This document shows positions 1 through 33,178 of a DNA stretch of 64,000 nucleotides, piece after piece. The notes under the pieces are model-generated. The model was given only the letters and a program-made list of their open reading frames with translations, made no database searches and had not been told where the DNA came from. The DNA is from Rhodothermales bacterium (GTDB lineage Bacteria > Bacteroidota > Rhodothermia > Rhodothermales > VXPQ01). The stretch covers positions 20,306-84,305 of the forward strand of contig JAJECT010000018.1 in the NCBI GenBank assembly GCA_022821845.1, given 5' to 3'. The position numbers were made by a program, and so were the translations under genes. Every line of letters starts with the position of its first letter. Within the stretch, counting starts at the first letter, position 1.

Positions 1-1
1 G

Positions 2-496
2 GCGCCGGGTCTGCGGCGGCTCGACAAATGGGCGGTCCGGCTGGGCGGCGGCGCAAACCACCGGCTGGGCCTCGACGATATGTTTCTCATCAAGGATAAC
101 CACATCGCCGCCGCCGGGGGCGTGGCGAAAGCGTTGCGGGCGGCGGAGCGGTACCGGCGGACGCGCGGCCTGTCGATACCTATCGAGATCGAAACCCGCA
201 CGCTCGACGAAGTGCGGGAAGCGCTGCGGGCGGAAATGCTAAACGCCGGGCGCGGCGACCGCATTCTTCTGGACAATATGGTAGACCTGTCTGCGGACGG
301 CAAGCCGGACGTATCGCGTCTCCGGGAAGCCATGTCCCTCGTTGCCGGACAGATTCCCGCTGAAGTGTCCGGCAACGTAACCCTCGGCACGGTGCGGGCG
401 ATCGCCGAAACGGGCGTACAGTATATTTCCTGCGGCGCCCTGACCCATTCTGTCGAAGCCCTGGACCTTTCGCTGCAACTGCGCATCGCATCATGA
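2..496 (+). CDS. nadC: Nicotinate-nucleotide (quinolinate) pyrophosphorylase, C-terminal part; the 5' end lies outside the window
   Basis: The frame is open from base 2. The translation ...DKWAVRLGGGANHRLGLDDMFLIKDNHI...ILLDNM...EVSGNVTL...ISCGALTHS carries the conserved NadC C-terminal motifs. The ATG at 80 in the ORF track is therefore internal. Confidence 0.9.
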   Translation, partial: APGLRRLDKWAVRLGGGANHRLGLDDMFLIKDNHIAAAGGVAKALRAAERYRRTRGLSIPIEIETRTLDEVREALRAEMLNAGRGDRILLDNMVDLSADGKPDVSRLREAMSLVAGQIPAEVSGNVTLGTVRAIAETGVQYISCGALTHSVEALDLSLQLRIAS

Positions 497-550
497 TTAC
501 GCCGATCAAAGCCGTCTCGCTCTTGCGCGCCGAACAGACAACACGTTTGC

Positions 551-593
551 GTAATACGTTGTAACGACATTGTAATTACGTTGTAATGACATT
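551..593. promoter_or_regulatory. Tandem 21/22-bp direct repeat upstream of, and overlapping the first ATG of, the ROK kinase gene; candidate operator
   Basis: GTAATACGTTGTAACGACATT (551-571) is followed directly by GTAATTACGTTGTAATGACATT (572-593). It lies in the nadC-ROK intergenic region and is AT-rich relative to its surroundings. Confidence 0.4.
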
Positions 594-1575
594 AGCAATA
601 CGCCGCATGGACCAGACCGAAAGCACATTGGGGCGCAATGCGCCTGCCCGATATGGCGGCGTAGAAGCCGGCGGCACAAAGTTCGTATGCGCGATCGGGG
701 ACGCTTCGCTGACCTTGCTCGAACGGGTCGAATTTCCTACCACGACGCCCGACGAAACGCTCGACCGGACGATAGACTTTTTCCGGTCCCGGGCAGGAAA
801 CGGCGGATTGGCCGCCCTGGGCATCGGCTCCTTCGGACCGGTAGACCCCCGTCCCGACTCCCCGGCCTGGGGGTATATCACCACCACGCCGAAGGCTGGA
901 TGGCGCCACACGGATTTTGCGGGCCGCCTGCGGCGGGCGCTGGGCGTACCCGTCGGATTCGACACGGATACGAACGCCGCCGCCCTCGGCGAGGGTACGC
1001 TTGGCGCAGCACAGGGCTTGCATACGTTCGTCTACCTGACCATTGGGACAGGGGTAGGCGGCGGCGCGCTGGTCGGCGGCAAGCGCGTCCACGGCTTGTT
1101 GCACCCGGAAATGGGGCACATGCTGCTGCCGCGCGCCGAAGGCGACGATTTCGAGGGCGTGTGTCCCTTTCACGGCGATTGCCTCGAAGGCATGGTCTCC
1201 GGCCCTGCGCTGTACGCCCGCGCAGGGGCCCCGCCGAACCGCCTGCCCCCCGACCACGAAATATGGACCTATGTAACGCACTATCTCTCCGCCGCGCTGG
1301 TAAATATTACGTACGTCCTTTCCCCGCAACGCATTATCCTCGGCGGGGGCGTCATGCATCAGCGCCATTTGTTTCCGCGTATCCGGCAGGGCGTAGAGCG
1401 CCTCCTCGCCGGCTACCTGCAAAGCCCGGAAATCACTGCGCATCCGGAAACGTTCATTGTGCCTCCGGGACTGGGGGACAACGCCGGCGTGGTGGGTTCG
1501 CTGGCGCTGGCCCGCCTCGCCGCCGAACAAGCCGTCTCCCGGGAACAGAAACATTCCGCCAAAAGAACCATTTGA
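586..1575 (+). CDS. ROK-family sugar kinase (fructokinase/Mak-like)
   Basis: It has the N-terminal ATP-binding motif GGVEAGGTKF. It also has the ROK zinc motif region HPEMGH...CPFHGDCLEG. The true start may be the ATG at 607, because 586 lies inside the upstream repeat. Confidence 0.85.
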   Translation: MTLAIRRMDQTESTLGRNAPARYGGVEAGGTKFVCAIGDASLTLLERVEFPTTTPDETLDRTIDFFRSRAGNGGLAALGIGSFGPVDPRPDSPAWGYITTTPKAGWRHTDFAGRLRRALGVPVGFDTDTNAAALGEGTLGAAQGLHTFVYLTIGTGVGGGALVGGKRVHGLLHPEMGHMLLPRAEGDDFEGVCPFHGDCLEGMVSGPALYARAGAPPNRLPPDHEIWTYVTHYLSAALVNITYVLSPQRIILGGGVMHQRHLFPRIRQGVERLLAGYLQSPEITAHPETFIVPPGLGDNAGVVGSLALARLAAEQAVSREQKHSAKRTI

Positions 1576-1708
1576 TTCAGTATCCTTAACAAACGAACAG
1601 GCGGCGAACCCGCGCTCGCCTACTTTACGTCCTTCCCCTTTCAGAACCTCTTTGCATGCAGCGAGCGCTACGGCACCAGCATCTACAACGTAACGACGCA
1701 GCGTCTCC

Positions 1709-3118
1709 ATGTTACAAGAGCAAAGCCGGCTGTTTCAGCGCATCCTGTTCGCCGTCGATCTGGCCCTGATCGTCATCGGGTGGATTCTCGCTTGGTTCGT
1801 CCGTTTCGAAGTCCTTGCGTGGGCGAATTTCCTGCCGCCGGCCGGGGTGATTCCTCTTTCGCGGTATCTCGCCTTTCTGCCGTGGGTACTCATCGTCTCC
1901 ATGACCGTGTTCTGGTTTTCCGGTCTGTACGCCCCGGATCGCCTGCAACGCATGACGCATCTCGTGCTCAGCGTCACCAAGGCCGTCGTCATGGGCCTGA
2001 TCGTGGTCACGGCCTCGCTATCCTTCTACCGCGAGTTGTCCTTCTCGCGTCTGCACATGATGCTTTTTGGCGTCGCCACCCCGGCGCTGATGGTGTTTGC
2101 CCGCCTCGCTATGTATATGGCGCTCCGGCGCGCGCAGAAGCGAGGGATGCACCTGCGGCGCGTACTCATCCTGGGGGCGGGGGACGCCGGACGGAAACTG
2201 GGAGAAGCCTTGCGGCAGTATCCCTGGATCGGGTTCGAGGTTGCGGGCTTCCTTGACGACCACAAAAAAGACCAGGAAGACGTACTGGGCGGCGTTTCGG
2301 AGGCCGTGGCGGTCGTGGATCGTTTCCAGCGCGAAAATCGGCCCATACATTATGTCTATATCGCCCTTCCGCTCACGGTCCTGCATCGCATCGAGCCGGT
2401 CGTGAACGAACTGTCCACCCGGCTGGCGCACGTCTGCCTCGTCCCGGACCTGTTTCATTTCGACATTGTGAACAGCCGGGTCACCAGCGTGGAGGGCCTG
2501 CCGATCATCCATCTGATCGACGAAGCGCCGCTGGAATTCGCTCGCGTCACGAAGCGCATCGTGGACATGGTTTTCGCTACGGCGGCGCTTGTCTTGCTGT
2601 CCCCGCTCATGCTCTTGCTCGCCATCGGCGTGAAGTTGTCCTCGCCCGGCCCAGTGTTTTACAAACAGAGCCGGATGGGGCTGAACGGACGCACGTTCGA
2701 CATGCTGAAGTTCCGCTCCATGCCCGTGGACGCCGAAGCCGCTACCGGCGCCGTATGGGCGCAGCCGGGCGAGAAGCGAGCCACCCGACTCGGCGCGCTC
2801 ATGCGTCGCACCTCGCTCGACGAATTGCCGCAATTCATCAATGTGCTCAAGGGAGATATGTCCGTCGTGGGGCCGCGACCCGAACGGCCTGTGTTCATCG
2901 AGCAATTCCGGGGTCGCGTACCCCGCTACATGCTGCGGCACAAAATGAAGGCGGGTATTACAGGCTGGGCGCAAGTAAACGGGTGGCGAGGCGACACGTC
3001 CATTGAAAAGCGCATCGAATACGACCTGTACTATATCCGAAACTGGTCCCTCCGCCTGGACGTAAAGATCATGGTGATGACGCTCTGGTCCGGTTTCGTG
3101 AACAAGAATGCGTATTGA
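1709..3118 (+). CDS. Polyprenyl-phosphate hexose-1-phosphate transferase (WbaP/WcaJ-type bacterial sugar transferase)
   Basis: It has N-terminal TM helices. The C-terminal sugar-transferase domain shows SPGPVFYKQSRMG, FDMLKFRSM, LDELPQFINVLKGDMSVVGPRP and YDLYYIRNWSL. Confidence 0.9.
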   Translation: MLQEQSRLFQRILFAVDLALIVIGWILAWFVRFEVLAWANFLPPAGVIPLSRYLAFLPWVLIVSMTVFWFSGLYAPDRLQRMTHLVLSVTKAVVMGLIVVTASLSFYRELSFSRLHMMLFGVATPALMVFARLAMYMALRRAQKRGMHLRRVLILGAGDAGRKLGEALRQYPWIGFEVAGFLDDHKKDQEDVLGGVSEAVAVVDRFQRENRPIHYVYIALPLTVLHRIEPVVNELSTRLAHVCLVPDLFHFDIVNSRVTSVEGLPIIHLIDEAPLEFARVTKRIVDMVFATAALVLLSPLMLLLAIGVKLSSPGPVFYKQSRMGLNGRTFDMLKFRSMPVDAEAATGAVWAQPGEKRATRLGALMRRTSLDELPQFINVLKGDMSVVGPRPERPVFIEQFRGRVPRYMLRHKMKAGITGWAQVNGWRGDTSIEKRIEYDLYYIRNWSLRLDVKIMVMTLWSGFVNKNAY

Positions 3119-3129
3119 GGGGGGGGGGG
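3119..3129. repeat. Homopolymeric G11 tract immediately after the sugar-transferase stop codon
   Basis: Read directly: TGA (3116-3118) is followed by 11 consecutive G. Confidence 0.9.
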
Positions 3130-3217
3130 ATTCGGGCGCAGGTGCGCGGGGCGGACGAGGCAAAATAATGGAATGGAAGGCGGGCAGAGCCTGTGGTTGC
3201 GCGGCGGGGGCGTGGAC

Positions 3218-3242
3218 TTTTGTACAATTTATTTTGTACAAT
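3218..3242. promoter_or_regulatory. Two copies of TTTTGTACAAT, each containing the palindrome TTGTACAA, spaced 14 bp apart upstream of the helicase gene; candidate operator
   Basis: TTTTGTACAAT occurs at 3218-3228 and again at 3232-3242. TTGTACAA is self-complementary. The pair sits about 130 bp upstream of the TTG start at 3372 in an AT-rich patch. Confidence 0.35.
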
Positions 3243-3371
3243 ACGTAACGATTTGCAAGAAATGCGGAGACGTTATATTATTCGGGATAAGTCCAGGAGG
3301 CGACGCATGGGATTGCGGCGCCCTGGACGCCCTGATCGCCTTCCCCCACACGCGACCACCGCATAAAGACC

Positions 3372-6300
3372 TTGCCGGACAAGATTCTCAACATTGGCAT
3401 AGGGCATCTGTTTGCTACGTACAACCAGTCCGACCGAAACGCGATTTTTCATATCGCTGGAATGCGGTATTCAGAGGAAAGCGTACCTGAAGAAAAAGAC
3501 TGGATCACGGATCCGGGGCATCGCCTCACGCGGCGTCTCTACGAACAAAGCAGAATCGGCAAGGTCATCCTGGAGGGAAAGCCATCCTGGACAGAAGCAA
3601 AGCCAGACATCGTTGCCTTCTTCAGCGAATTGGACGTGCTTTTCCTGTACGACCGGGAAAACCAGAAGGAATGGTTCGAGCGCGTTGTCCTGAAAGATGC
3701 GCCCAAACCTCCTGTTTGCATTGATCTCCTTGAAATGCATCGCTTTTTCTGTCCAGACCGCGATCTTCCGGACAGAAAAAACCTGTCGGAGCCCAACCTT
3801 TCGGACGACGAAGCCCTGATCCGGCAATTCGTTTCGCAAGCGGAAATAAATCGCTCCGATCCCCGGCTGCCTTTCCTTGTGCGCAGCCTCGGCGGCGTAT
3901 TGCAGGATATCGTGTCCCGCATTCGCTCCGAATCGGAAGCACAGCAAGGAAAACACCTCGTGTACACCTTGCTCGGAAGGGCCCTGAACGCAGGAGAAGC
4001 CGCCACGCCGCCCCCTGCGTTTCGGGATTTCGAAGCCTTGTTTCAGGTGGCAGGCATGGCGCACCGGATCCAATGGAACAAGAATTCTCTTTTCGCCAAT
4101 CCCTATGGAGACGAGGCGCTCCAAATAATCCAGGACACGGATTTCTCGAAAGACCCCGCTATCGAAGGCGATACGCGCAAACAGAGAAATTGGCTGATCC
4201 AGGAATGGAGCAAGTTACTGGCCGAGGAAGCAAAGCAAGGCTATGAGGCCGTACCCCGCCGGAAACCAATCGATCCGAAAAATCCCCCTCGCGTGGCGAG
4301 GCCTGTCGTCCATGCCGAGCGCGTAGACGAGGCTTTTAACTGGCTGATCGAAAAAGAAAACTTAAAGCCTCGCAAAGAACAACAGGATTATGCCCGTTTC
4401 TGCACTGAGGCTATCAACCAAGGGGGATCGTACGCCATTGAGGCCGGAACCGGTACCGGCAAAACACTGGGCTATCTGATACCAGCCTCCGAATGCATCC
4501 GGCAAAGCCAGGCCATGGCCGCGGAGGACATGGAGGATGGCGAGGACGTGGAGGCCGGAAAGGTTATTATCGCCACCGCCACGAAAAACCTGCAGGACCA
4601 CCTTCTGGACAAGGAATGGCGGCGCCTTGCCCAAACCGGATCGCTTTATCAGGATTTCAAGGCGGCGCCGCTCAAAGGCAAAAACAACTTTCTGTGCATT
4701 ACCGCTGTGGCGGACATTTTTGGAGAAACATACACACCACGAGCCCGAAGAAATCATAAAAGTACTGAAAAGACATCCCCGGACGACGAAGCGCAAAAGC
4801 GGCTTGCCTGGTTATTGTTATTCCTTGTTCTGATACATAACCGAGGGGAAACAGAGAGCATTCCCCGGCGTTTTTTCCGATCCCGATTTCCTGATCTGGA
4901 CGATTTTCTAAGCGAAACGAAGGCGGACATAGCCTGTACGCCCGGCCTGTGCCGCATGGGCGCATCCTGTATCTATCCCCGACACCTGCAAGAAGCCCAA
5001 AAGGCAGATATTGTAGTCACGAATCACTACAAGCTTCCCCTTATGGATAGCCAGATACAGGCGCTGGGACATACATGCCTGATCGACGAGGCGGATCAAT
5101 TCCCGGACAATCTGCGCAATGCAGCCACCGTCGAATTTTCCAGTTACGACATTCGACGACATTTCCTGCAACGCATCCAGGGCTCCGCAAATCGTCGCGG
5201 ATTCGCAGATATCCTGGAAGATCGTTTCCTGAAAATGCAAGAATCCGGCAACGACGATATAAATAAAAAAGACATCGATAACGCGCTGGATCATATTCGA
5301 TCTATTCTTGTGTCCTGCGAGGCCATAGAACATTGCTCGAATACCATTGAAAATATATTGCAAAATAGCGGGAAATTTCAAAATAATAATACCGATGAAA
5401 AAAGATGGATTGAATTTGGAGATAATGTTGAAAAAACATTACAAAATAATCTTTCTGATTTGACTGAACATTGTAAAAAAGTTGCTCTGTGCTGGAATGA
5501 TATGTCAGAGATTAAAATATATGGAAATATTAATAATTCGCAACAAAAATATGAAAAAAATCGTATAATAAAATATATGCGTTATGCAAATGATTTATCA
5601 AACAAAGCCAATGAAATTAAAAATGATTACCCTTCTAATAATTATGTTCATGTTTGTTCTTGTAAATATTTTAAATATTCAGATTGGAAATTGAAAAAAA
5701 TTCCGTACAATCTATCTAAGATAGTTCAGACAACCTGTTGCGATCCATATCCTGCAACGATATTTACTTCGGCTACTTTATTCGTAGACGAAAAACTCGA
5801 TTTGTTTTCCACTGAGCTGGGCATTTCGTTTGGTGGAGATATGCGGCGACGCATTTCATCTCCTTTCGCATATGAGAAACAGGTCCAGGGATTCGTGACC
5901 ACTTCGGTTTCAATGGTTCCCAATTCCAAAGATGGTTACGAAAAAAGTATGCAATGGCGCAAAGAGGCCGCCTATGCTATCGCCCGCTTCGCCGTGGCGC
6001 TAAACGGACGTACCCTGGTCCTGTTCACCAACACAAAAGAAATGGCAAATATCTTTGAACAAGTGAAACCCACGCTCGAAAGATACGGTATCGAGCCTCT
6101 GCTACAGGACGGAAGCAGCCTTGCTGAAATAAATATTTTTCGCTCCACGAATCAAAGCGTACTTTTCGGCGTGAATCGATTCTGGACCGGGGTAGATTTC
6201 CCGGGATCTACCCTCTCTCAAGTGATCGTGGTACGCTTGCCTAATCCAAGATGGAAAGGCGATCCCCTGATAGATCACCGAAAATGTCATATGGAATATG

Positions 6301-6638
6301 ATGAATTTCTGGAAAAATATTACCGCCCCGTCTCCAAGTTACGATTGCGACAGGGCTTCGGACGCCTTATCCGCAAGGAAGATGACAAGGGTCTGTTCGT
6401 GGTGCTGGATCAGCGGATCTGGTCTAAAGAACACATGCGCGATATGCAAAACGCCGTGCCCATCCCCCTCCAGCGCCGTTCCACCGAACCGGACGCAATG
6501 GAGGACTGGTTTATCAAAGAGGGGCTGGCGCATTTGGGTTTGACACCAGAATTCAAGCAGCGCAATATTGACCTGCGAAACATAAAAATTACCAGCAAAC
6601 CACGCCCTGCCCCAAGGAGACCTGGCCAAAGAAGATGA
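3372..6638 (+). CDS. DinG/XPD (Rad3)-family Fe-S DNA helicase with an N-terminal extension of about 340 aa
   Basis: Walker A is AGTGTGKTLGYL and motif II is LIDEADQF. The Fe-S cysteines are FLC...IAC-x4-C-x5-C (CTPGLCRMGASC). The C-terminal motifs are TSATL, FWTGVDFPG and QGFGRLIRKEDDKG. The annotated start is TTG. Confidence 0.85.
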   Translation: MPDKILNIGIGHLFATYNQSDRNAIFHIAGMRYSEESVPEEKDWITDPGHRLTRRLYEQSRIGKVILEGKPSWTEAKPDIVAFFSELDVLFLYDRENQKEWFERVVLKDAPKPPVCIDLLEMHRFFCPDRDLPDRKNLSEPNLSDDEALIRQFVSQAEINRSDPRLPFLVRSLGGVLQDIVSRIRSESEAQQGKHLVYTLLGRALNAGEAATPPPAFRDFEALFQVAGMAHRIQWNKNSLFANPYGDEALQIIQDTDFSKDPAIEGDTRKQRNWLIQEWSKLLAEEAKQGYEAVPRRKPIDPKNPPRVARPVVHAERVDEAFNWLIEKENLKPRKEQQDYARFCTEAINQGGSYAIEAGTGTGKTLGYLIPASECIRQSQAMAAEDMEDGEDVEAGKVIIATATKNLQDHLLDKEWRRLAQTGSLYQDFKAAPLKGKNNFLCITAVADIFGETYTPRARRNHKSTEKTSPDDEAQKRLAWLLLFLVLIHNRGETESIPRRFFRSRFPDLDDFLSETKADIACTPGLCRMGASCIYPRHLQEAQKADIVVTNHYKLPLMDSQIQALGHTCLIDEADQFPDNLRNAATVEFSSYDIRRHFLQRIQGSANRRGFADILEDRFLKMQESGNDDINKKDIDNALDHIRSILVSCEAIEHCSNTIENILQNSGKFQNNNTDEKRWIEFGDNVEKTLQNNLSDLTEHCKKVALCWNDMSEIKIYGNINNSQQKYEKNRIIKYMRYANDLSNKANEIKNDYPSNNYVHVCSCKYFKYSDWKLKKIPYNLSKIVQTTCCDPYPATIFTSATLFVDEKLDLFSTELGISFGGDMRRRISSPFAYEKQVQGFVTTSVSMVPNSKDGYEKSMQWRKEAAYAIARFAVALNGRTLVLFTNTKEMANIFEQVKPTLERYGIEPLLQDGSSLAEINIFRSTNQSVLFGVNRFWTGVDFPGSTLSQVIVVRLPNPRWKGDPLIDHRKCHMEYDEFLEKYYRPVSKLRLRQGFGRLIRKEDDKGLFVVLDQRIWSKEHMRDMQNAVPIPLQRRSTEPDAMEDWFIKEGLAHLGLTPEFKQRNIDLRNIKITSKPRPAPRRPGQRR

Positions 6639-6714
6639 CCGGCAAGGGATATACCATAGCGAGACGCCCGCCGCGCCAACGCAGCCCGTACACTGAAGCC
6701 CATATCCCGTCGTC

Positions 6715-8388
6715 ATGAGCTGGGTAATTGGATTCGTTGGCAGCGCGCCGGACGCCGATGTAGCCGAAGCGCACGACGCTCCGCGATACGGCGTGCAGGA
6801 ATCCGGGGTGTACGCCCAGGCGGGTGGATTGGCGCTGACCTGTGCAGGCGGCGCCCTGCCGAACGGCGGTTCGTTTCTGATAACCGGGCTGGCGGCGGCA
6901 AACGGAACCGTACTGACGCGCGACGACTGGGCCGACCGGCTGAATCCTCCGAAACCCAACCTGCGCGATCTGGACGGTCACTTCGTAGCATTCCGTTGGC
7001 GTTCGGGCCGGGCGGAACTTTTCACCGACCCGCTGGGCGTCCGCACCGCGTACCTGAAGGCATGGCAGGGGGGTACGCTTTTTTGTACGCGCCTGGACTG
7101 GCTCGCAAACATCGTCGGCGGGCTGGACATCAACTTCGCAGCGTTCGGGGCGCACTGGCTTCTGCCGAAACAGCTCACCACGGAGAGTCAGGTACAAAAT
7201 GTCGTACGGCTCGGGCCGGGCGGGCACGCCGTCATAGAGCGCCGACACTTCCAAATGACGGAACAGCCGTGGGAAAGCGAAATCCGCCCCGCCGATCCCG
7301 ATGGCGACGTCTTCGCCGACGCCCTCTCCCAAGCCCTGCGCTGGAAAGGTCCGGTAGCCTGGAGCCTGGGGCTGTCCGGGGGGCTGGATTCGCGGTTGCT
7401 CCTGGCGCTGCATACGCCTGCCGCCGCGCATGTCTGGGGACCGTCGGACCATCCCGACGTGGACATTTCGCAGCGGATTGCCCAAAGCGAAGCCCTGCGT
7501 CACCATATTTTTGCGACCCCCGTTCCCAAAATAGACGAGTGCCTTTCGCTGCTCCGCAAGCACATAGCGCGCGCACAAGTCATTGCCCCTGCCTCGTCTG
7601 TCGCGAACCTTGATCACTATAGCCGATTGCACGCCATGGGCTTGGGCGTGATCGACGGGGGTTTTGGCGGAGTAGCCCGCAGGCAACTCATGAATCGCTT
7701 GCTGGCGCGAAGGGCATTTCGAGGACCCTGGCCCCTGATCATGCAACATTTGTCCATTGACCGAGGGAATATCTTCGCGCCCGAAATTTCAAAAATCATG
7801 CGGACGGGCGCGCTGGCGCAAATTGCAGAGCAGTGGGAGGCGATACCGGAGATAGTGGATCCTGAAAATGCCGTCGATCTTCTTTGTGTACGCATGCAAC
7901 TACCTAATTTTTTTGGATTTGAGCAAAATTATCTGGATGGGGAGGCGGCGTGTTACATGCCCTTTGCGCAGCCCTCGGTGTTAAAAGCGCTATTTCAGGT
8001 ACCGTTGGCGCAACGACGGAATGGGAAACTTTTCCGGCGACTCATAAAGCGTAACTGCGCATCTCTTTCGAGGCATCCGCTGGTCAAGGGAACAATCACC
8101 TATCCCTATGGATTGGGAACGTACGGGACCTATGCCATATCGACGCTCAAAAAGTGTTTGGGGCGGGCGTACAGCGATCCCAGACCGCATCAATTTCTGA
8201 ATGCGATGAAGCCATATGTCCTGGACCTGACCGGAAGCGCGGAGGTGCAAAACTATACGCCCTATGCGCATAAAGCGGTGCGGGCGCTTGCGGAAGCATA
8301 CTATAATGGAGACCTGCGACAGGCTTCCCGTCTGAACTGGTGGCTGACATTCGAAATATGGCGCCAGACGCTATCTGGCAAGCGCTAA
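6715..8388 (+). CDS. Asparagine-synthase-like PP-loop ATP pyrophosphatase without the N-terminal catalytic Cys
   Basis: It has the PP-loop SLGLSGGLDSRLLLAL. The N-terminal AsnB-like fold signature is DGHFVAF...LFTDPLGVRTAY. The N-terminus reads MSWVIGF rather than MCG. Confidence 0.8.
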   Translation: MSWVIGFVGSAPDADVAEAHDAPRYGVQESGVYAQAGGLALTCAGGALPNGGSFLITGLAAANGTVLTRDDWADRLNPPKPNLRDLDGHFVAFRWRSGRAELFTDPLGVRTAYLKAWQGGTLFCTRLDWLANIVGGLDINFAAFGAHWLLPKQLTTESQVQNVVRLGPGGHAVIERRHFQMTEQPWESEIRPADPDGDVFADALSQALRWKGPVAWSLGLSGGLDSRLLLALHTPAAAHVWGPSDHPDVDISQRIAQSEALRHHIFATPVPKIDECLSLLRKHIARAQVIAPASSVANLDHYSRLHAMGLGVIDGGFGGVARRQLMNRLLARRAFRGPWPLIMQHLSIDRGNIFAPEISKIMRTGALAQIAEQWEAIPEIVDPENAVDLLCVRMQLPNFFGFEQNYLDGEAACYMPFAQPSVLKALFQVPLAQRRNGKLFRRLIKRNCASLSRHPLVKGTITYPYGLGTYGTYAISTLKKCLGRAYSDPRPHQFLNAMKPYVLDLTGSAEVQNYTPYAHKAVRALAEAYYNGDLRQASRLNWWLTFEIWRQTLSGKR

Positions 8389-8418
8389 AGGATACGCTGA
8401 TTAAAACCACTACTACTC

Positions 8419-10017
8419 ATGCAACACATTCGCCTGCGCAATACCCCCAGCCCCGCTTTCAAGACAGCGATAGCCCTTGCGACGGCCGTCTTACTGGCGG
8501 CCTGTTCGCCCGAAGCGCCCAAACAGGGCGTAAACGTTGCGGCCGCTTCGCAAACGGAAACAGCGGCGGCGGACTCGCTTTTCCAGGAGGAACTGGCGCG
8601 AGATATCCGCACCATTGTTACGGGAGTAAAATCGCCCGCGCAACAAGAAGCGCTCGCGCAGGCCGCCCGCATCGCGCCGGGCCAAATGAACCACGACCTG
8701 CGCGAAATCCTCGTCGATGCGGCGACTTTTGTCAATTATTTAATGCTGCCTGCGTTGAAAGCCGACGATGCCCGTCTGGACAGCCTTTCCCAACTTCTGA
8801 CCCGCGCCTTGCAGCCTCAGTTTTCCCAGGAAGAATTGACGGCAGACATTCTGTCCATCGCATATCGTTTCCATGAAGAAAGCACCCCCCTTGAGCCAGT
8901 GCCTCAAGCGCGCCAGGAAACGGCGGCATGGGTGGCCATGCACATGTCTCCCGGAAAAATGGGAGAAGCATTACGACATGCTGTGATTGAAGGAATAGCA
9001 AGTATAGGCAACGAAAGTTATGGTATGTATACGACCAGGAGATTTCTTTTAGACGCATTGATAAATCAAACCCCCGGGGGCATGGAAACGCTGGCGGCAA
9101 ATCCGAAAGCAGTCGTTGGCCCCGGCATTCTTGACGAAGGTCGTATGTCTTCCTTTACATCTTTCGTCCGGCAAATATCAAGGCAGGGTACACCGGAACC
9201 ATATATCCCTCCGCCAACGCCAAAGCCAGAGATCACGCCCTTTCACGGACTTCTCGCGGCTATACAATCTATCTCGGCGGGCGAAAGGAGAGAACGACAA
9301 CTGGAAGCTGTACGGCATGTGGAAAAAATGGCGGAAGCGGATCCAACGCAGATAGGAGATACGCTACGCACGGCGATAGTAGACGCCTTTTTAGATATGC
9401 ACAACGCGGCAGCAAAGCCAACGTGGAGCAACCCGGGAGCCGAAGTCTACTATAGTTTACTGAACACGCTTGAGCGCCTTATCATAATCGTTGGAAATAC
9501 CCAAACAGTTGAACTTTTTACAGAACTTAATTTGTACGAATACGAATGCGTAGGGACCGTAAGCGAAGGTCTCTTCAAAAATTTTCCCGACCACAGCATT
9601 CCGTTGATCATTGAATCCACTGCTCAACCGCGAACGCTATCTGAAAAAACACCCGACGCACTGTATATTCTGGGCGAAATAATAATCGATTACAAACGAG
9701 GCAGGCTGGATATATCGCAGAATAACAGAGACCTGTTGATCGCCACAACCCGGCGTTTTCTGGAAGAAGACCTCTCGCTTGCGTGGAACACGCGAGGCGC
9801 ATCCAATTCGTATAGCGATTCGAACGTTCTGTCCGCAGCTATCCACTTGGCCATCGCGTTGGACGATCCGGACCTGATAGACATCTTGCAGGAATTGGCG
9901 ACGAATCCGGATAAAATAACCGTGCTCGGCCTTTCCGACGAACAGGTGGAAGATTTTCAGGAAGGCATAAAATGGCGTTTAGGCTGGCGGCCCTATATGG
10001 GACCTTCCGATTGTTAG
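8419..10017 (+). CDS. Large predicted lipoprotein of unknown function, predicted alpha-helical
   Basis: It has a signal peptide with a lipobox (AVLLAAC|SPE). It is a long uninterrupted ORF 31 nt downstream of the AsnB-like gene, and G+C drops towards its 3' end. Confidence 0.7.
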   Translation: MQHIRLRNTPSPAFKTAIALATAVLLAACSPEAPKQGVNVAAASQTETAAADSLFQEELARDIRTIVTGVKSPAQQEALAQAARIAPGQMNHDLREILVDAATFVNYLMLPALKADDARLDSLSQLLTRALQPQFSQEELTADILSIAYRFHEESTPLEPVPQARQETAAWVAMHMSPGKMGEALRHAVIEGIASIGNESYGMYTTRRFLLDALINQTPGGMETLAANPKAVVGPGILDEGRMSSFTSFVRQISRQGTPEPYIPPPTPKPEITPFHGLLAAIQSISAGERRERQLEAVRHVEKMAEADPTQIGDTLRTAIVDAFLDMHNAAAKPTWSNPGAEVYYSLLNTLERLIIIVGNTQTVELFTELNLYEYECVGTVSEGLFKNFPDHSIPLIIESTAQPRTLSEKTPDALYILGEIIIDYKRGRLDISQNNRDLLIATTRRFLEEDLSLAWNTRGASNSYSDSNVLSAAIHLAIALDDPDLIDILQELATNPDKITVLGLSDEQVEDFQEGIKWRLGWRPYMGPSDC

Positions 10018-10085
10018 ATAAATTTATATGAAATATGTTTATTTAAGTCTGTTATCAAAATTTATTAAGAACATTCAAACGCTCA

Positions 10086-11054
10086 CTATTCACTGCGATA
10101 CGGCATATCCAAAAGCCGCAAGGTATGATGGAATATTTCGTTTATGAATTTCGCCCATTCACGTTCAATGTGTAATATTTCTGCGAGAAGAAATACTTTT
10201 TCAATGTGCATGTTGTTGAGTTGATTGCGCATTTCTTTCGTCACCACGCCTGCGATCAGGAAATTTTTCGTTCTTGCAGAGGTTCGGTCAAAAGATTTTT
10301 TAACGGCGCCAAGCCGTTCCAGAGCTCCAGCCGGATCGGTGCCGCCCTTCACTTCAATCGTTGCTATCTCTTTCCAGGAACCGTCCGGCATTGCTTCTTC
10401 AAAGCGGATATCCGGTTCAGAGGCATATACCATACGGAAATGGTCTTGAGGACCCAGGTGCCATGCCGTCCGCGCTTCGTTGACCTGGCAGACAATACCC
10501 GACCGGTTTTCAAGCCATTCCGCGATTCTGTCTTTGACGGATCGTTCCGCTTCCTGCCCAATGATATTCCTGAGTGCGCCATCCTGCGTGATGCCGATAG
10601 TCGCAAGAATGTTACGATAGCCATTTTCGAGCGTCCAGTCTGTAGAACCTCGAATAATGGAAGATATAACGGCATTGTACAGACGAGCGACCCGGAGCGC
10701 CTTTTCTTCCGTAACGCGTACGGCTGCAGGCGCTTTTTCCCAACGATCTATGGCGCCAACAATATCTGCGACCCTCTTGCGGGAAAGCGTGGCGATTCCT
10801 CGATAATGCAAGGACGCATCCGGATGTATGCAGAGCAAATCAGGATGGGCAAAAACAAGCCTGGGCTTGGCGCCCGTTTCCTCAATATGTCGCCATGCTT
10901 CCATGTCAATCCCGAACTGCTCAGGCTTGTCCCATGGAAGATGTCCCGCAAATGCAAGTATCTTGTTGCGAACCGCTTCGTCCGTGCGGGCGCGAATCTT
11001 GTCCGAAATAATGCGTGCGCGTTGGCGCGCAGCCTCCAACTTATTCAGGTCCAT
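10086..11054 (-). CDS. Putative type II restriction endonuclease (PD-(D/E)xK candidate)
   Basis: Its ATG follows the methyltransferase stop codon directly (TAA ATG at 11057-11052 on the minus strand). A PD...ExK-like motif is present (ASEPDIRFEE...ATIEVKGG). Its G+C is lower than that of its neighbours. Confidence 0.55.
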   Translation of the reverse strand: MDLNKLEAARQRARIISDKIRARTDEAVRNKILAFAGHLPWDKPEQFGIDMEAWRHIEETGAKPRLVFAHPDLLCIHPDASLHYRGIATLSRKRVADIVGAIDRWEKAPAAVRVTEEKALRVARLYNAVISSIIRGSTDWTLENGYRNILATIGITQDGALRNIIGQEAERSVKDRIAEWLENRSGIVCQVNEARTAWHLGPQDHFRMVYASEPDIRFEEAMPDGSWKEIATIEVKGGTDPAGALERLGAVKKSFDRTSARTKNFLIAGVVTKEMRNQLNNMHIEKVFLLAEILHIEREWAKFINEIFHHTLRLLDMPYRSE

Positions 11055-12557
11055 TTACGTTCGCTGCCAGTGATATACGCATTTACGAATTTCCTGCCGA
11101 CCGAATCGCCCCATCTGCTGGCTGGAATTTCCCTTCCCCCTGGGTAGAGCCCAAATAGTATTGCAACGAAAACCTGACCGTTCGGCAAAATCGGAGAGGA
11201 TCAGATCCACAGGGGCCTCTTCGCCATGATAACGCACATTGTCGTTGACCATGAAAACATGCCCCCCAGGCGCCACGACGCGAGCAAGTTCTGTAATGAC
11301 AACCGCCATTTCCGTGAAATAGTGTAGAAGCAGGCCGATAACGTTACGATTGCCGAGCTCGTCCGCGTGCGCGCGAAGAATAGTCAGAACCTCTGCCAGC
11401 GCAGCATTGGCGTCCACCATCTCAAAAACGCGGCACAACGAGTCAGACGCCCCATATACCCTTGCGAGCTCGTCCCGCTTGGATCGATTTTCGACGGTCG
11501 CAGACAGCAACGCTTGTCGGAGCGTCTTGAACGCCTGTTCATCGTACCCCAGGAACGCCAATTCAAGCGCATACGTGCGGGTATAGTCATACCGATTCGC
11601 ATAAGGTGGCGACGTGACGACCGTATCGAACGACCTGTCGTCGAGATTTCGCAATTCGGTCAGACAGGAACCCCCTATCAACTCCGGCGATGGACCGCCA
11701 TACGTGCGCTTGACAACTGGAATATCCGCGATAATCTGATCCAGGCGGCGTTTCAGCGCGGAGCCGAGCGACGGCAATGGCCCCTTGTCGAGCCGGGTGC
11801 TGTTCGTTCGACCGGAACGAGGATCCCACCGAAGATACTGCCCGTCTTTCCGGGTGTAACTGACATCCTCAATAACCGTCATGCAAGCGAAGTTCAGAAC
11901 AGTCGCAAGGGACGCATCGGACAATCCGGCAAGGAATGTCCGCGCTCTTGCGATGTCTTCCTCAGCTTGCTGCGAAAAAGCCCCCCGCGTGATACGAACA
12001 TGCGGGAAACGCCGCTTTTCGTCCGCTTCGCCGGATTCGATATGCCGAAGCAATCTTGCCGAAGCGTCTGTCAATGTTCCGGGGGAAAGTCCGTTAGCAA
12101 CGGCGGCGATAGCGCCCGCAGCCAGGTTCCCGATCGGCATGATTTCGATACCCGTAGCGCGCTTGCCCATACGGCTGGCCGTCAACGCAGTAGTCCCGAT
12201 ACCGGAAAAGGGATCAAGAACGCGGTTTCCGCCGCCTGTATTCAACAGGCGTTCTACGAGCCGCGTGGAAAACCCTTCCTTGTATTTCATCCAGCGAAAA
12301 CCCGGAATGCTTTTGTTGCCCTGATAAGAAACAAGGCGCCGGGTCAGGTCATAGTCGATGCGGATCCGGCTTGCAAAGCGGGCAAGCAGTTCGCTGCGCG
12401 CGGAAGTTGGCCCGCCATTCGGCGACAGAGCAGGCCGGGAAGCAGGTTTGGCCGCCAGGGGCAACGTCGTCTGGATCACTTTTTTAGACCCTTGGGGGTG
12501 ACTGTGAGATTCGGATAAAGGTACGACAACAATGTGCATTGGTTCGCCGCAGGACAT
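11055..12557 (-). CDS. DNA methyltransferase (N4-cytosine or N6-adenine class)
   Basis: The AdoMet-binding motif is VLDPFSGIGTTALTA. The catalytic motif IV is VVTSPPYANRYDY. The start could instead be the ATG at 12539. Confidence 0.85.
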   Translation of the reverse strand: MSCGEPMHIVVVPLSESHSHPQGSKKVIQTTLPLAAKPASRPALSPNGGPTSARSELLARFASRIRIDYDLTRRLVSYQGNKSIPGFRWMKYKEGFSTRLVERLLNTGGGNRVLDPFSGIGTTALTASRMGKRATGIEIMPIGNLAAGAIAAVANGLSPGTLTDASARLLRHIESGEADEKRRFPHVRITRGAFSQQAEEDIARARTFLAGLSDASLATVLNFACMTVIEDVSYTRKDGQYLRWDPRSGRTNSTRLDKGPLPSLGSALKRRLDQIIADIPVVKRTYGGPSPELIGGSCLTELRNLDDRSFDTVVTSPPYANRYDYTRTYALELAFLGYDEQAFKTLRQALLSATVENRSKRDELARVYGASDSLCRVFEMVDANAALAEVLTILRAHADELGNRNVIGLLLHYFTEMAVVITELARVVAPGGHVFMVNDNVRYHGEEAPVDLILSDFAERSGFRCNTIWALPRGKGNSSQQMGRFGRQEIRKCVYHWQRT

Positions 12558-12573
12558 CGGAAAACCGCTTTTC

Positions 12574-14622
12574 CTACCCCTCCCTGCCCCCCACCTCCTC
12601 GCTCGCCATTGCCCACTGGGCGTACGCCGTATCGAGGTCTTCCTGCATCCGCTCGTATTCGGCGCGCAGCGTACGAATCAGGGCTCCGTTCCGATACGCG
12701 TCCGGGGCCGCCATCTGCTCCTGCATTTCCTGAAAAGCCTGCTCCTTTTCGGCGATTTCCCGTTCCAGGCGGTCGCAATACGCACGCAACTGATGGGTCG
12801 TCATCGCTTCGGGATCGACCGCACCGCCCTGCTTCATGGCCCGGTGCAGACGGTTGCGTTCTTCGGCTTCCCGCCGCTTCTGCTCCTTTGAGCGCGGCCC
12901 GCCGGAACCCTTCCCGGCCGTTTCGGACCGACGCTTTCGAGGCGCCTTTCCGCCCAGCCCCTTCAAAGCCTGCCCTTCCGGTTCGGAACGCGCGCCTCCA
13001 AACCCCATGCGCTCCCTGTTTTCGGAATAAGCGCCAATGAACGTACGCACCTGCCCCGCTGCGGCGTACCAGACGCGGTTGGCCACGCGGTCCAGAAAAT
13101 GCCGGTCGTGGCTGATGACGACAAACGCGCCGGAATACTGGCGCAACGCTTCGACCAGCACCGGAATCGACGCCGCGTCGAGATGGTTGGTCGGCTCGTC
13201 GAGGATCAGGAAATTGGACGGGCGGAGCAAGGTGCGGGCCAGCGTAACCCGGCTCTTTTCTCCCCCGGACAGCACCCGAATGCGCTTGAACACATCGTCC
13301 CCCGTAAACAGAAAGGCGCCCAGCACGGAGCGCAGTTCCCCATCCGTTTTGTCCCCGGCGGCCCGGCGCAGCGATTCGAGAATCGTGTCCGCCGGTTCCA
13401 GCATATCCGCCTGATGCTGGGCGAAAAAGGCATGCTCTACGCGGTAGCCCAACGTCCGCTCGCCCTCGAACGGCTCAGTCCCGTTGAGCATGCGCGCGAG
13501 GGTGGATTTGCCCGCCCCGTTCTTCCCGATCAGGGCAATTTTGTCCCCGCGTTCGACCGCAAGCGGCCCGGCGTTCTCGAAAACGCGAATATCGCCATCC
13601 TCGGTGCGATAGGCTTTGGAAAACGGGCTTAGTTCCAACGCCACGCGCCCGGACCTCGGCGGCTCCGGGAAACGAATGCGCACGGCGGCCTCCTCCGACG
13701 GGGCAGGAGGAATGCGCTTCAGCCGTTCGAGCATTTTCACGCGGCTCTGCACCTGTTTCGCCTTGGACGCCTTGTACCGAAACCGCTCGATGAACCGTTC
13801 CGTGGCGGCGATTTCCCGTTGCTGATTCTCGTGCGCAGCCTGCTGAAGGGCGCGCCGTTCAACGCGTTCCCGGAGATAAAAACTGTAGTTGCCGGCGTAG
13901 GAGTGAATGCGCCCCTGGGCCAGTTCGGCGATGGCCGTCACCATCCGATCCAGAAAATACCGGTCGTGGGAAACGATGACTACGGTCCCCTCGTAGCCTT
14001 TCAGGTGGTTCTCCAGCCAGTCGATACTTTCGATGTCGAGGTGATTGGTCGGCTCGTCAAGCAGCAAATAGTCCGGTTGCCGAAGCAGCAGCCGGGCCAG
14101 CATCGCCCGCATCCGCCACCCCCCGGAAAAAGACTTCACCGGGCGTTCCATATCTTCGGCGGCGAATCCGAGGCCGGCAAGCACCACTTCCGCCTTCGGG
14201 CGAATCATATGGGCCTCGCGCAGGGCCAGTGCCGCATGGACGCGGTCCAGCGCATGAAGCCGCCCGGCGTACTCGGCGCCCTCGTGGTTCTGCAACCCCT
14301 CCAGTTCGGAAACGAGTTGCGCTTCCTCGGCCTGAAGGTCCCGAATGTCCGAGAATCCTTTCAGCGCCTCGTCCAGAATAGACGCCTCGGAGTCGAGCGC
14401 CTGCACATCCTGCTCCAGATACCCGATAGATGTGCGAGCGCCCATGGCCAACCGCCCCTCGTCCGGCTCGATATGCCCTTCAACGAGGCGGAGCATGGTG
14501 GTTTTGCCCGCGCCGTTCTTCCCGATCAGCCCGATGCGTTCCCCGACAGGAATGCTCCACGACAAGCGGTCGAAAAGCACCTGATCGGCAAAACGGAGCG
14601 ATATGTCCTGGAACTGGATCAT
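12574..14622 (-). CDS. ABC-F family ATPase (Uup/YheS-like) with tandem ABC domains and a C-terminal coiled coil
   Basis: It has two Walker A motifs (GKNGAGKTT and GKNGAGKST). It has two signature motifs (FSGGWRMR and LSGGEKSR). It has no TM domain and ends in a basic, coiled-coil tail. Confidence 0.9.
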   Translation of the reverse strand: MIQFQDISLRFADQVLFDRLSWSIPVGERIGLIGKNGAGKTTMLRLVEGHIEPDEGRLAMGARTSIGYLEQDVQALDSEASILDEALKGFSDIRDLQAEEAQLVSELEGLQNHEGAEYAGRLHALDRVHAALALREAHMIRPKAEVVLAGLGFAAEDMERPVKSFSGGWRMRAMLARLLLRQPDYLLLDEPTNHLDIESIDWLENHLKGYEGTVVIVSHDRYFLDRMVTAIAELAQGRIHSYAGNYSFYLRERVERRALQQAAHENQQREIAATERFIERFRYKASKAKQVQSRVKMLERLKRIPPAPSEEAAVRIRFPEPPRSGRVALELSPFSKAYRTEDGDIRVFENAGPLAVERGDKIALIGKNGAGKSTLARMLNGTEPFEGERTLGYRVEHAFFAQHQADMLEPADTILESLRRAAGDKTDGELRSVLGAFLFTGDDVFKRIRVLSGGEKSRVTLARTLLRPSNFLILDEPTNHLDAASIPVLVEALRQYSGAFVVISHDRHFLDRVANRVWYAAAGQVRTFIGAYSENRERMGFGGARSEPEGQALKGLGGKAPRKRRSETAGKGSGGPRSKEQKRREAEERNRLHRAMKQGGAVDPEAMTTHQLRAYCDRLEREIAEKEQAFQEMQEQMAAPDAYRNGALIRTLRAEYERMQEDLDTAYAQWAMASEEVGGREG

Positions 14623-14743
14623 GGGGGACTGGCCCGCACTCGTAGAAGCCGCACACGCTACGAAAAATCACGGAGATGCGCCAGCCCGGCCCGTAAGAGA
14701 ATACGCCGCCTGGGGCCAAAACCTCCTCAACGAGGCCAAATCC

Positions 14744-15601
14744 TCAACTACCCCGGAAGCGTTCCAGCAATTCGTACCGCCTCCGTTCCAGGATGTGCGT
14801 AATCAGCCGAATCCAGCGCGCATGAAAAAGAAGGCCCGCCAGACCCAGCACGGCCATCGTCGGAAAAATTATTTCCCGGGTTTGCGAAAAGAAATACAAA
14901 GAAACGACGAACGCCATGCTCAAAACGGTCAATACCCAAAAAACGGGCACGATCCACCGGGACGGGATTGCGTCTTTGGAAACAGTATCTACGCGATACG
15001 GATCCCCGTGCCCCGCATCGCGAAATTTGAGATTCAGGTTCGTACGCGCGACCGGCTGAAAAGCGGTAACGGCGAACGCAAGCAGATAATTGCCGACGCC
15101 CAAAACATACAAGCCCGAAGCGCCTGTCATAAACACGTCGCCCCAATCTCCCCGAACCAGCGCGGATGCGACCACCAAGACGCCGAAAAAAAGCGCGGCG
15201 AATACGTGGAATGCGTATACGACGATCCAGGCAATGTGGCTTTCCGATACGGGCCTTGCCAGCAACCCGTCATAGAATCGGCTTCGGGAAATAAGCAAAA
15301 AAGAAGAAATCGGAACCGTTAGCATAAGGTACAGCACCAGGGAATACCCATCGGGAGAATGGCTCAATGCAGAAGCCAGTCCGACGAGTAGCACAAAGCC
15401 GAAAACCATAAGCGCCAGGCGAGGACGCCTGTTCCGCAACTGGAGCTTCCACTCCACGGAAAGAAGCGCCCATCGCAATCCCCGAACCGCTTGCGGGCGG
15501 TCAGCGCGTTGTCCCTTTTGCACAACCGATAAAGCCATAGCCAGTCCTCGCAAATAAACAGGCGACCGGTCGTCGCGCCTATACCGCCACCGACCGGGCA
15601 A
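14744..15601 (-). CDS. Multi-pass membrane protein, half-size paralog of the two upstream ABC-associated membrane proteins
   Basis: It shares the motifs EWKLQLRNRRPR and SRFYDGLLARPVS with the products of 16369-17895 and 17903-19387. The start may be the ATG at 15538. Confidence 0.7.
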   Translation of the reverse strand: MPGRWRYRRDDRSPVYLRGLAMALSVVQKGQRADRPQAVRGLRWALLSVEWKLQLRNRRPRLALMVFGFVLLVGLASALSHSPDGYSLVLYLMLTVPISSFLLISRSRFYDGLLARPVSESHIAWIVVYAFHVFAALFFGVLVVASALVRGDWGDVFMTGASGLYVLGVGNYLLAFAVTAFQPVARTNLNLKFRDAGHGDPYRVDTVSKDAIPSRWIVPVFWVLTVLSMAFVVSLYFFSQTREIIFPTMAVLGLAGLLFHARWIRLITHILERRRYELLERFRGS

Positions 15602-16289: not shown

Positions 16290-16368
16290 GGCGCAGCGCG
16301 GGACAAAGGGACAAAAAGTTTCACCTGGGAAAAAACCAGACGCAAAACCTGCCTTCAGGTTCCCCGCG

Positions 16369-32513: not shown

Positions 32514-33120
32514 GATATTAACCTGTGTTAGTTACGATGTAGTACAGCAGAACCCGGCCAGAACCGAGCACCGATTCCCCGAAAGCGGGCGCGTATCCAT
32601 AGTCTAACGCCCCGCCTGGACAATGTCAAGCCCTTGTCTGAATTTTTTTTCGGGCCGCTTCCCTGTGGGGTTCGTGGATTCCTTCGTACTCTTCGACGAG
32701 GCGTTCCGTTCGGCAAAGGTAGCATATCCATTCCGCCCGCCATACGCCTTTCTTCGCCTTCGAGGCCCAAAGCATAACGCCGCCTTTCTCTTCGCGCACA
32801 GGGTACAGGGGAAAGGATTCGGGATTTTGACGCGGAACCCGCCTGCGGTTTCAATGCAGTTCGGTTCGGGATCGGTTCGTTTCATGGGTTCGGTACGTGT
32901 AAGGGGTTCGCAGGCGTTGGCCGCTTTCTTTGCGCAGGAAGGCGAAACCGTTTCGCGCCTTCGCAAGCGTTCCGCATCGCGCCGTAAACGCGCCCAGAAC
33001 GCCCGCAAGGCCGCGCATCGAGGCCGAAAGAACCCGTAACGCGGCGGAAACCGTGCGGAAACAGCGCGTAAACGCGGCGTATCTACCAGAGGCGCGGCAA
33101 AATCACCGTGTAACAACCCT

Positions 33121-33178
33121 AAATTAGCCGTAAAACCGCTAAAAACAGCTGAAAACAGTAGTAAAACGCAAAAACCCC
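33121..33178. repeat. Phased A-tract / iteron-like array
   Basis: The sequence is AAATTAGCCG TAAAACCGC TAAAAACAGC TGAAAACAGTAG TAAAACGC AAAAACCCC. Six A4-5 tracts recur at spacings of about 8-12 bp, just upstream of the wHTH ORF. Confidence 0.6.

Follow-up and report, generated by a model that had tools for sequence, protein, structure and literature searches.

Gene content and composition of the region

The region examined here lies at positions 3372 to 12557 of a window of 64,000 nucleotides (the whole stretch of Rhodothermales DNA that was analysed, from contig JAJECT010000018.1), and it holds genes for a helicase, an AsnB-like enzyme and a lipoprotein, followed by a restriction-modification (R-M) pair. 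The original prediction, made from the sequence alone, saw a possible defence or DNA-processing island in which the first three genes might act together. Comparison with relatives points elsewhere: the region is probably a composite variable chromosomal slot, bounded by two anchor genes, that encodes no single system.

All five predicted open reading frames (ORFs) are present where they had been placed. On the plus strand, the first (3372..6638) encodes a DinG-family Fe-S helicase of 1088 aa, identified by Pfam, NCBIfam and PADLOC matches, relatives in the PDB and invariant motifs. It is followed by the gene for the AsnB-like protein (6715..8388, plus strand), a Cys-less PP-loop enzyme of the AsnB superfamily of 557 aa recognized by motif, family profile and fold search, and by that for a clade-restricted alpha-solenoid lipoprotein of 532 aa (8419..10017, plus strand), with an invariant lipobox and an AlphaFold2 (AF2) model. 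Next comes an AT-rich spacer (10018..10085), read from the sequence, which separates the convergent stop codons of the lipoprotein and restriction endonuclease (REase) genes and forms the left edge of the R-M insert. The REase gene (10086..11054, minus strand) encodes a 322-aa type II enzyme of the XcyI family (PF09571; PADLOC REase_II), and the adjoining gene (11055..12557, minus strand) an N4/N6 DNA methyltransferase (MTase) of 500 aa as called (PF01555; PADLOC MTase_II). The left flank is a polyprenyl-phosphate sugar transferase gene (1709..3118, plus strand) with Bac_transf and CoA_binding_3 domains (Pfam, 233.9 and 94.6 bits), and the right flank an ABC-F ATPase gene (12574..14622, minus strand; Pfam and NCBIfam).

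The R-M pair is convergent with the three plus-strand genes, as described earlier, and those three are indeed co-oriented with short gaps. The gaps measure 76 and 30 nt, the earlier figures of 77 and 31 being start-minus-stop differences. The lower GC content of the region was likewise confirmed (0.527 vs 0.601 in the remaining window), and it ranks third lowest among 220 same-size windows. It is unevenly distributed: the helicase gene has a GC content of 0.486, the lipoprotein gene 0.526, the REase gene 0.509 and the MTase gene 0.565; that of the AsnB-like gene, at 0.595, is typical of this genome. The low value of the helicase gene is due in part to an AT-rich stretch at 5300-5720. The rest of the window is ordinary chromosome, with UvrB, an M16 peptidase, a DUF5687/ABC transporter set and 2-oxoglutarate dehydrogenase. 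Assignment of the organism to Rhodothermales is borne out by homologues of its genes. Across the 64 kb there was no Rfam match, hence no tRNA, and no CRISPR-like repeat array. Neither the R-M pair nor the AsnB-like gene bears marks of integration: no convincing flanking repeats were found, and the window has no tRNA or other Rfam match.

A variable slot between two anchor genes

In the clade relatives examined, gene order is constant apart from one interval: the Bac_transf gene, the helicase gene, variable content, and the ABC-F gene. The Bac_transf gene lies directly upstream of the helicase at L001, L006, L007, L008, L009, L089 and L090, with 88-98% protein identity, and the ABC-F gene occupies the same position, at 85-97% identity, in all relatives compared. 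The helicase itself keeps its place between the sugar-transferase and ABC-F genes in every clade relative examined.

The content downstream of the helicase changes from one relative to the next. It is empty at L007, where the helicase stands alone. Two lipoprotein paralogues occupy it at L088 and L090, two followed by REase and MTase genes at L089, and three followed by an MTase gene only at L091. An AsnB-like gene and one lipoprotein gene are found at L001 and L010; at L006 and L011, a 104-aa ORF and two insertion sequence (IS) transposases precede the AsnB-like gene, which is followed by an 826-aa lipoprotein. At L009 the AsnB-like gene is followed by a 5'-truncated MTase gene, with no lipoprotein. 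Only the window and L008 combine the AsnB-like gene, one lipoprotein gene and both R-M genes. The expectation that the region is partly accessory was therefore well founded, since close relatives differ in their R-M genes, in the number of lipoprotein copies and in where the AsnB-like gene lies. The helicase, AsnB-like and lipoprotein genes do not form one unit, because they are not co-conserved elsewhere, which is the outcome that the original prediction had named beforehand as refuting it; L088-L091, for example, have the helicase and lipoproteins without an AsnB-like gene. We conclude that the helicase is the resident gene of the slot and that the lipoprotein family and the R-M pair are its truly variable content. 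Gene identities, distribution, synteny, presence or absence and the mosaic structure of the helicase gene were established directly; the biochemical activities given below are all inferred.

A relocated AsnB-like gene

The description of the second protein as a Cys-less AsnB-like PP-loop enzyme was borne out by its motif, by the missing Cys2 and by profile and fold matches. The SGGLDS PP-loop is invariant among 32 homologues. In 31 of these the N-terminus reads M-S-W (in some, M-G-W) and never carries Cys; the remaining one is N-terminally truncated. Assignment as a class II (Ntn) glutamine amidotransferase or asparagine synthetase B was rejected, since the N-terminal Cys nucleophile (Cys2 of the precursor) is missing. 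A single-sequence search of the PDB gave nothing, and only the family profile and the fold search succeeded. The profile matches TsnB9, AsnB, human ASNS and CarA at E ~1e-6, and QueC only at E 0.056. With the AF2 model (predicted local distance difference test score, pLDDT, 92.7), Foldseek matched TsnB9, beta-lactam synthetase, CarA and AsnB at E 2e-16 to 1e-12. The Pfam match to PF00733 (17.6 bits) is under the gathering score of 21.

The distribution of this family was scanned with one genome per species, which yielded 151 loci with a relative, and neighbourhoods were counted by tblastn over the best 80 of these, 10 kb on each side. These 80 loci come from Rhodothermales, Ignavibacteria, Calditrichia, Kapaibacteria, Chlorobiota, KSB1, Cloacimonadota and WOR-3. 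At only four of them (L008-L011), which are the nearest relatives (76-89% AsnB-like identity), is the helicase found within 10 kb of the AsnB-like gene, and a lipoprotein homologue is nearby at three. The AsnB-like gene comes straight after pyruvate phosphate dikinase (PPDK) at 30 to 32 of the 80, and at 30 PPDK is the immediate same-strand upstream neighbour. The loci flagged for this linkage are L012-L033, L043, L048, L049, L055, L062, L063, L076 and L087, and they include the closest outgroup, L012 (69% AsnB-like identity). In Rhodothermales a block of topA, PPDK, AsnB-like and acyl-CoA dehydrogenase genes is conserved, with a gap of ~10 nt after PPDK where gene calls were read. One complete genome of 3.71 Mb has its helicase (L005) and AsnB-like gene (L016) ~3 Mb apart.

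The ancestral position of the AsnB-like gene in Rhodothermales is thus directly after PPDK. Because the gene in the slot has native GC content, and because the two complete clade genomes in the scan have one AsnB-like locus each, it is read as a native gene relocated into the slot. The single copy would have moved, in one small subclade, to a place between the helicase and the lipoprotein gene. By analogy with Cys-less members of its superfamily (beta-lactam synthetase, CarA and TsnB9), the enzyme probably adenylates a carboxylate (ATP to AMP + PPi) and would then, without glutamine hydrolysis, probably form an amide with ammonia, another amine or an intramolecular amine. A lasso-peptide or macrolactam cyclase was considered and set aside: NF033561 scores 40.6 bits vs a cut-off of 300, and the conserved neighbours are PPDK, topA and acyl-CoA dehydrogenase (small precursor ORFs were not searched for).

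Outside Rhodothermales the neighbours show no consistent theme and include, judged by eye, an M61-type peptidase, a TonB-dependent receptor, a flippase, TruA and a response regulator. At L050 (6185-12625), an AsnB-like gene of 35% identity sits between a ROK-like gene (judged by eye) and a Bac_transf gene, with ABC-F adjoining and no helicase; this is a second, different placement of an AsnB-like gene in the same conserved neighbourhood. Taken together, the family is an unannotated, new member of the AsnB superfamily, present at no fewer than 151 genome loci across Rhodothermales, Ignavibacteria, Calditrichia and related groups.

A small lipoprotein family almost confined to the slot

The third gene had been predicted to encode a large lipoprotein, and its lipobox (LLAAC(29)S) supports this, with A28 and C29 invariant in 19 homologues. 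Also invariant in the family are Cys377 and a C-terminal RPYMGxxDC in which Cys is the very last residue. The protein has no match in Pfam, NCBIfam or PADLOC, and a single-sequence search of the PDB returned nothing. The family is tiny: 18 representatives were found among 1.84 billion proteins in an exhaustive HMMER search and 35 among 5.8 billion in an indexed search, and a metagenome scan added only three further loci. The AF2 model (pLDDT 80.9) is alpha-helical throughout, and its matches are limited to generic ARM/HEAT ones at a template modelling (TM) score of ~0.2. From this model the lipoprotein may be an envelope alpha-solenoid, possibly a binding scaffold. Two forms occur, of ~500 aa and ~770 aa, the longer apparently with its ALDDPDLI..LATNPDK repeat region duplicated internally (a reading of the alignment by eye).

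Nearly all located copies of the family lie in the slot between helicase and ABC-F, where there are zero to three in tandem; L092 has an extra paralogue beyond ABC-F, on the opposite strand. The dN/dS of the lipoprotein gene (0.41) is the highest in the locus. The lipoprotein is a member of a fast-evolving, clade-specific family that expands and contracts in the slot. This orphan family, like the AsnB-like one, is a new member and not a new category.

The restriction-modification pair

Both genes of the R-M pair score above family thresholds, and the pair is, as predicted, a recognizable type II defence module. The REase matches RE_XcyI (PF09571) with 56.2 bits vs a cut-off of 25 and PADLOC REase_II at E 6e-7; the MTase matches N6_N4_Mtase (PF01555) with 43.4 bits vs 26.7 and PADLOC MTase_II (PDLC03224) at E 5.6e-118. 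The two genes abut at 11054/11055 on the same strand. A distant REase homologue in Nostoc is annotated as an XcyI family restriction endonuclease, and there is also a weak match to the BsoBI family (23.1 bits, under the cut-off); a single-sequence search of the PDB with the REase gave nothing. In the MTase, motif I precedes an SPPY motif IV, and SPPY is typical of N4-cytosine methylases. The pair would probably restrict unmethylated incoming DNA, with protection by m4C.

The boundaries of the insert can be read from L001, where the lipoprotein and ABC-F genes abut tail to tail: positions 10018-12573 of the window are extra DNA exactly between those convergent stops. The R-M pair shares 96% identity with that of L008 and 86-92% with that of L089, which is more distant (REase 86%). 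Decay is seen in L091, with the MTase only, and in L009, with a 5'-truncated MTase, and among the relatives the REase is absent outside L008 and L089. R-M modules usually show such a pattern of gain, loss and decay. Codon 25 of the extended MTase ORF is an in-frame stop in the L008 orthologue, and the L091 match begins at residue 25; judging from these alignments, the true MTase start is probably downstream of 12557, near 12479, with the first ~25 codons (12479-12557) untranslated.

Site avoidance was tried as a guide to the specificity of the pair and abandoned: CCCGGG was observed 27 times vs 42.5 expected, but other GC-rich palindromes are also depleted. Window-wide, observed and expected counts are 2 vs 20 for CTCGAG, 13 vs 38 for CGGCCG and 9 vs 27 for GGGCCC. 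This depletion suggests long-term exposure to several R-M specificities and does not point to the site of the pair in the window.

Identity of the DinG-family helicase

The helicase matches Helicase_C_2 (PF13307) with 98.5 bits and DEAD with 27.1 bits, and its closest solved relatives are the DinG proteins of S. aureus (8zef) and E. coli (6fwr). In an alignment of 12 homologues, Walker A (AGTGTGKT), the DEAD box and motif VI (QGFGRLxR) are invariant, as are the cysteines C442, C522, C527 and C533 of a predicted four-cysteine Fe-S domain. Motifs and cysteines together support the label of an Fe-S DinG-like helicase. The NCBIfam DinG, YoaA and dinG_rel models match strongly, yet far under their equivalog cut-offs (245 vs 789, 241.6 vs 680, 195 vs 548 and 175 vs 598). 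The protein was consequently not accepted as an equivalog of E. coli DinG, YoaA or Bacillus DinG. The TTG start at 3372 is supported by the alignment of homologues, which begins at residue 3.

The N-terminal domain of ~330 aa (3372..4361, plus strand) is a degenerate DnaQ-like domain, recognized by comparison with P0150, a homologue that carries PF00929 (RNase_T exonuclease): over residues 3-240 it aligns with the N-terminus of that protein at 37% identity. DnaQ-type exonucleases have an ExoI motif D-x-E-T-T-G (a DEDD motif). At this position the window helicase and its relatives read H-L-F-A-T-G (in full, G-H-L-F-A-T-G), and Pfam reports no exonuclease domain (PF00929) for the window helicase. 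An active fusion of DnaQ exonuclease and DinG was rejected on these grounds, with no PF00929 match and H-L-F replacing the acidic residues of D-x-E. Exonuclease activity of the domain has, to judge from these residues, probably been lost. The protein would be a stand-alone DinG-family, XPD-like 5'-3' Fe-S helicase with a degenerate DnaQ-like domain, retained vertically in the clade. By analogy with DinG, it most likely acts in DNA repair or replication conflicts, without exonuclease activity.

A mosaic helicase gene

The window and L008 are collinear over positions 1-14627 at 92-98% identity, but only 66-84% identity is seen over ~4600-6500. This divergent tract (4600..6500, plus strand) lies inside the helicase gene and makes it a recombination mosaic by both identity and synonymous divergence (dS) against L008: dS is 0.68 for codons 411-1076 vs 0.14 for codons 1-410, and neighbouring genes range from 0.10 to 0.21. 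The dN/dS of the tract is 0.31. Because dS is raised and dN/dS is 0.31, the 3' two-thirds of the gene is read as an older divergent allele imported by recombination. Positive selection in place was rejected as the source of the divergence, given a dS up ~five-fold and the same dN/dS.

Within the tract lies the AT-rich stretch (5300..5720, plus strand; GC 0.20-0.37, GC at third codon positions ~0.2), which encodes many Asn, Lys and Ile. The original prediction described it as a cassette. It proved to be an in-frame part of the helicase gene at ~5300-5720, alignable to all homologues. A foreign cassette or insertion was also discounted, as the stretch is in frame and homologous in all relatives and ranks the relatives by identity in the same order as its flanks. 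It is the least conserved part of the helicase in all homologues. The AT-richness is common to the alleles of the window, L008, L001 and L088 and absent from those of L006, L007, L009, L089 and L090. The segment is probably an arch-like insertion. Promoter-like hexamers cluster in it on both strands, as expected from AT-richness alone.

Alternative readings of the locus

Several points weigh against the composite slot. The three plus-strand genes run in the same direction only 76 and 30 nt apart, no convincing terminator separates them, and they may be co-transcribed here. The helicase subfamily is patchy outside the clade, with ~43 close clusters in varied contexts, and an accessory or conflict-related role for the helicase may apply. 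One homologue (L005) lies beside IS66 fragments and an M78/DUF4411 pair, and a distant homologue of 34% identity (L096, 1-7475) is found immediately 3' of CBASS-like genes (E2-CBASS, ThiF and a Prok-E2/ThiF/JAB/patatin fusion). Two supporting assumptions, that the helicase is the only DinG in the genome and that the AsnB-like gene is single copy, rest on partial evidence. Finally, the adjacency of helicase and lipoprotein genes in most clade genomes could be explained by function as well as by synteny.

As to the other distant helicase homologues, L094 has housekeeping-like neighbours and L095 lies in a Peptidase_S24/SprT region. Around L005 and L094-L096 there is no consistent partner and no clear defence enrichment.

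Of the other explanations, the one that survives best builds on that adjacency. The helicase and the variable-copy lipoprotein family would form a clade-specific module, possibly conflict-related, with alleles exchanged by recombination, and the AsnB-like gene would be an unrelated insertion. One to three lipoprotein paralogues lie directly 3' of the helicase at L088-L091, with gaps of ~10-30 nt; the 3' part of the helicase and the lipoproteins both diverge faster than their neighbours; the lipoprotein has the highest dN/dS in the locus (0.41); and its family is almost confined to the slot. Yet L007 and L009 have the helicase and no lipoprotein, the distant helicase homologues at L005 and L094-L096 lack such a neighbour, and the L092 paralogue sits beyond ABC-F on the other strand. 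The two proteins are moreover predicted in different cell compartments, and adjacency inside one genus-level clade is weak evidence of a functional tie. We regard such a module as unlikely. A more specific version, in which a helicase with a dead exonuclease domain and the lipoproteins that follow it form a clade-specific module for conflict with phages or plasmids, its alleles and copy numbers shuffled by recombination, and in which the slot is a small defence hotspot that also captures R-M modules, is distinctly unlikely.

A functional pair of the AsnB-like enzyme and the downstream lipoprotein, with the enzyme for example amidating or cyclizing the lipoprotein or a cell-envelope component, would fit the 30-nt gap and the recurrence of the same order in the window, L008, L001 and L006. 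The L050 AsnB-like gene again adjoins Bac_transf, and one KSB1 locus has a flippase-like neighbour (judged by eye). However, a lipoprotein homologue is missing from the surroundings of more than 70 AsnB-like loci, no AsnB-like gene adjoins the lipoprotein genes of L088-L091, and L009 has the AsnB-like gene without a lipoprotein. This pairing is very unlikely.

The reading originally proposed, a new defence or DNA-modification system in which the PP-loop enzyme modifies DNA or a nucleotide and the helicase acts there, the R-M pair being its neighbour in a defence island, draws on the co-orientation and short gaps of the three genes, on a slot that also takes in an R-M module and IS elements, and on the 280 bits that the helicase scores with the PADLOC 'typeIV_DinG' model. 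The distribution of the genes largely refutes it. The three genes occur together only there and in the nearest relatives (the helicase being near the AsnB-like gene at 4 of the 80 loci), each is found without the others in close relatives, and in most Rhodothermales the AsnB-like family, which has native GC, has PPDK and topA for neighbours. Nor would a cytoplasmic DNA enzyme be likely to work with a lipoprotein of the periplasm or cell surface. The suggested PADLOC check, with PADLOC-DB 2.0 models that cover known and candidate defence systems, gave no match (E up to 0.01) for the AsnB-like protein or the lipoprotein, and a literature search for a defence system joining DinG and an asparagine synthetase found nothing relevant. 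A three-gene defence system is thus highly improbable, and the R-M pair is the sole recognizable defence module in the region. What stands of the island proposal is a compositionally distinct, partly accessory region with an R-M module; what falls is the three-gene set as a system.

It is extremely improbable that the helicase is a type IV-A CRISPR-associated DinG (Csf4) or its remnant, an identity that we rejected: the PADLOC typeIV_DinG models do match (best E 7.8e-84), but NCBIfam cas_csf4 (TIGR03117) gives 72.4 bits vs a cut-off of 400 where the DinG and YoaA models give ~240, the 64 kb hold neither a CRISPR-like array nor an Rfam CRISPR match, and the neighbours are sugar transferase, AsnB-like and ABC-F genes, not csf genes.

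Other features of the window

Beyond the region, collinearity with L008 stops at the start of the ABC-F gene (~14627), and at least the next 2.4 kb align at only 36-57% identity. A sharp GC dip, to 0.30 at 16501-17000, lies inside the DUF5687 gene (16369-17895). Positions 14627-17000 look like a second variable patch, in the DUF5687/ABC-transporter cluster. A low-GC block at 32604-36091 (0.46-0.52) holds two minus-strand ORFs without a Pfam family (32604-33362 and 33551-34411) and the gene of a 544-aa protein with a Peptidase_M15 domain (34457-36091, minus strand), in which there is a GC-rich tandem repeat (34961-35026). Near the left end of the window, a 22-nt tandem repeat occupies 551-602, the plus-strand ORF at 586-1575 aligns with an L001 gene annotated as a ROK-family protein, and the minus-strand ORF at 592-1710 (372 aa) has no family match and is probably spurious.

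Significance and comparison with known systems

As a defence candidate the region carries low weight: the three-gene 'system' dissolves once relatives are compared, and only a conventional type II R-M pair remains. The case cautions against inferring a system from an operon's tight spacing and low GC beside an R-M pair. Three by-products are worth recording. One is an unannotated AsnB-superfamily enzyme without the glutaminase Cys, conserved across groups and tightly linked to PPDK in Rhodothermales; another is a DinG-subfamily gene of which a divergent allele has replaced a part, in strains that otherwise share ~95% identity across the locus; and the third is a very small lipoprotein family, restricted to one lineage, that ends in an invariant Asp-Cys and has zero to three copies at one locus.

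Every component of the region belongs to a known kind. With the PP-loop defence systems (Dnd, Ssp, Dpd and QatABCD) the AsnB-like protein shares only a PP-loop of the ATP-pyrophosphatase type. Its fold, in contrast, is AsnB-type and neither QueC-like (QueC matches only at E 0.056) nor PAPS-reductase-like, it has no PADLOC match, and no partner genes of such systems are among the genes scanned.

The helicase resembles DinG and the 'DnaQ-family exonuclease-DinG family helicase' (TIGR01407 architecture) in its XPD-like core, Walker A, DEAD box, four Fe-S cysteines and Helicase_C_2, and its N-terminal domain is homologous to the exonuclease domain of relatives. It differs in scoring under every equivalog cut-off, in the replaced acidic residues of ExoI, in a long hypervariable and partly AT-rich arch-like segment, and in belonging to a subfamily nearly confined to Rhodothermales. 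The R-M pair is like the type II systems of the XcyI/Cfr9I/XmaI kind, with an XcyI-family REase abutting an N4/N6 MTase that has an SPPY motif IV, and is set apart by the additional weak BsoBI-family match of its REase.

The AsnB-like protein is closest to the Cys-less AsnB superfamily, which includes beta-lactam synthetase (1jgt), carbapenam synthetase CarA (1q15), TsnB9 (7ylz) and the lasso-peptide cyclases. It shares with them the two-domain fold, an Ntn-like N domain joined to a PP-loop synthetase domain, together with an intact SGGLDS and no N-terminal Cys. It is, however, only 12-15% identical to the matched structures, and its gene is surrounded by no biosynthetic cluster but is, in Rhodothermales, a conserved single gene after PPDK.

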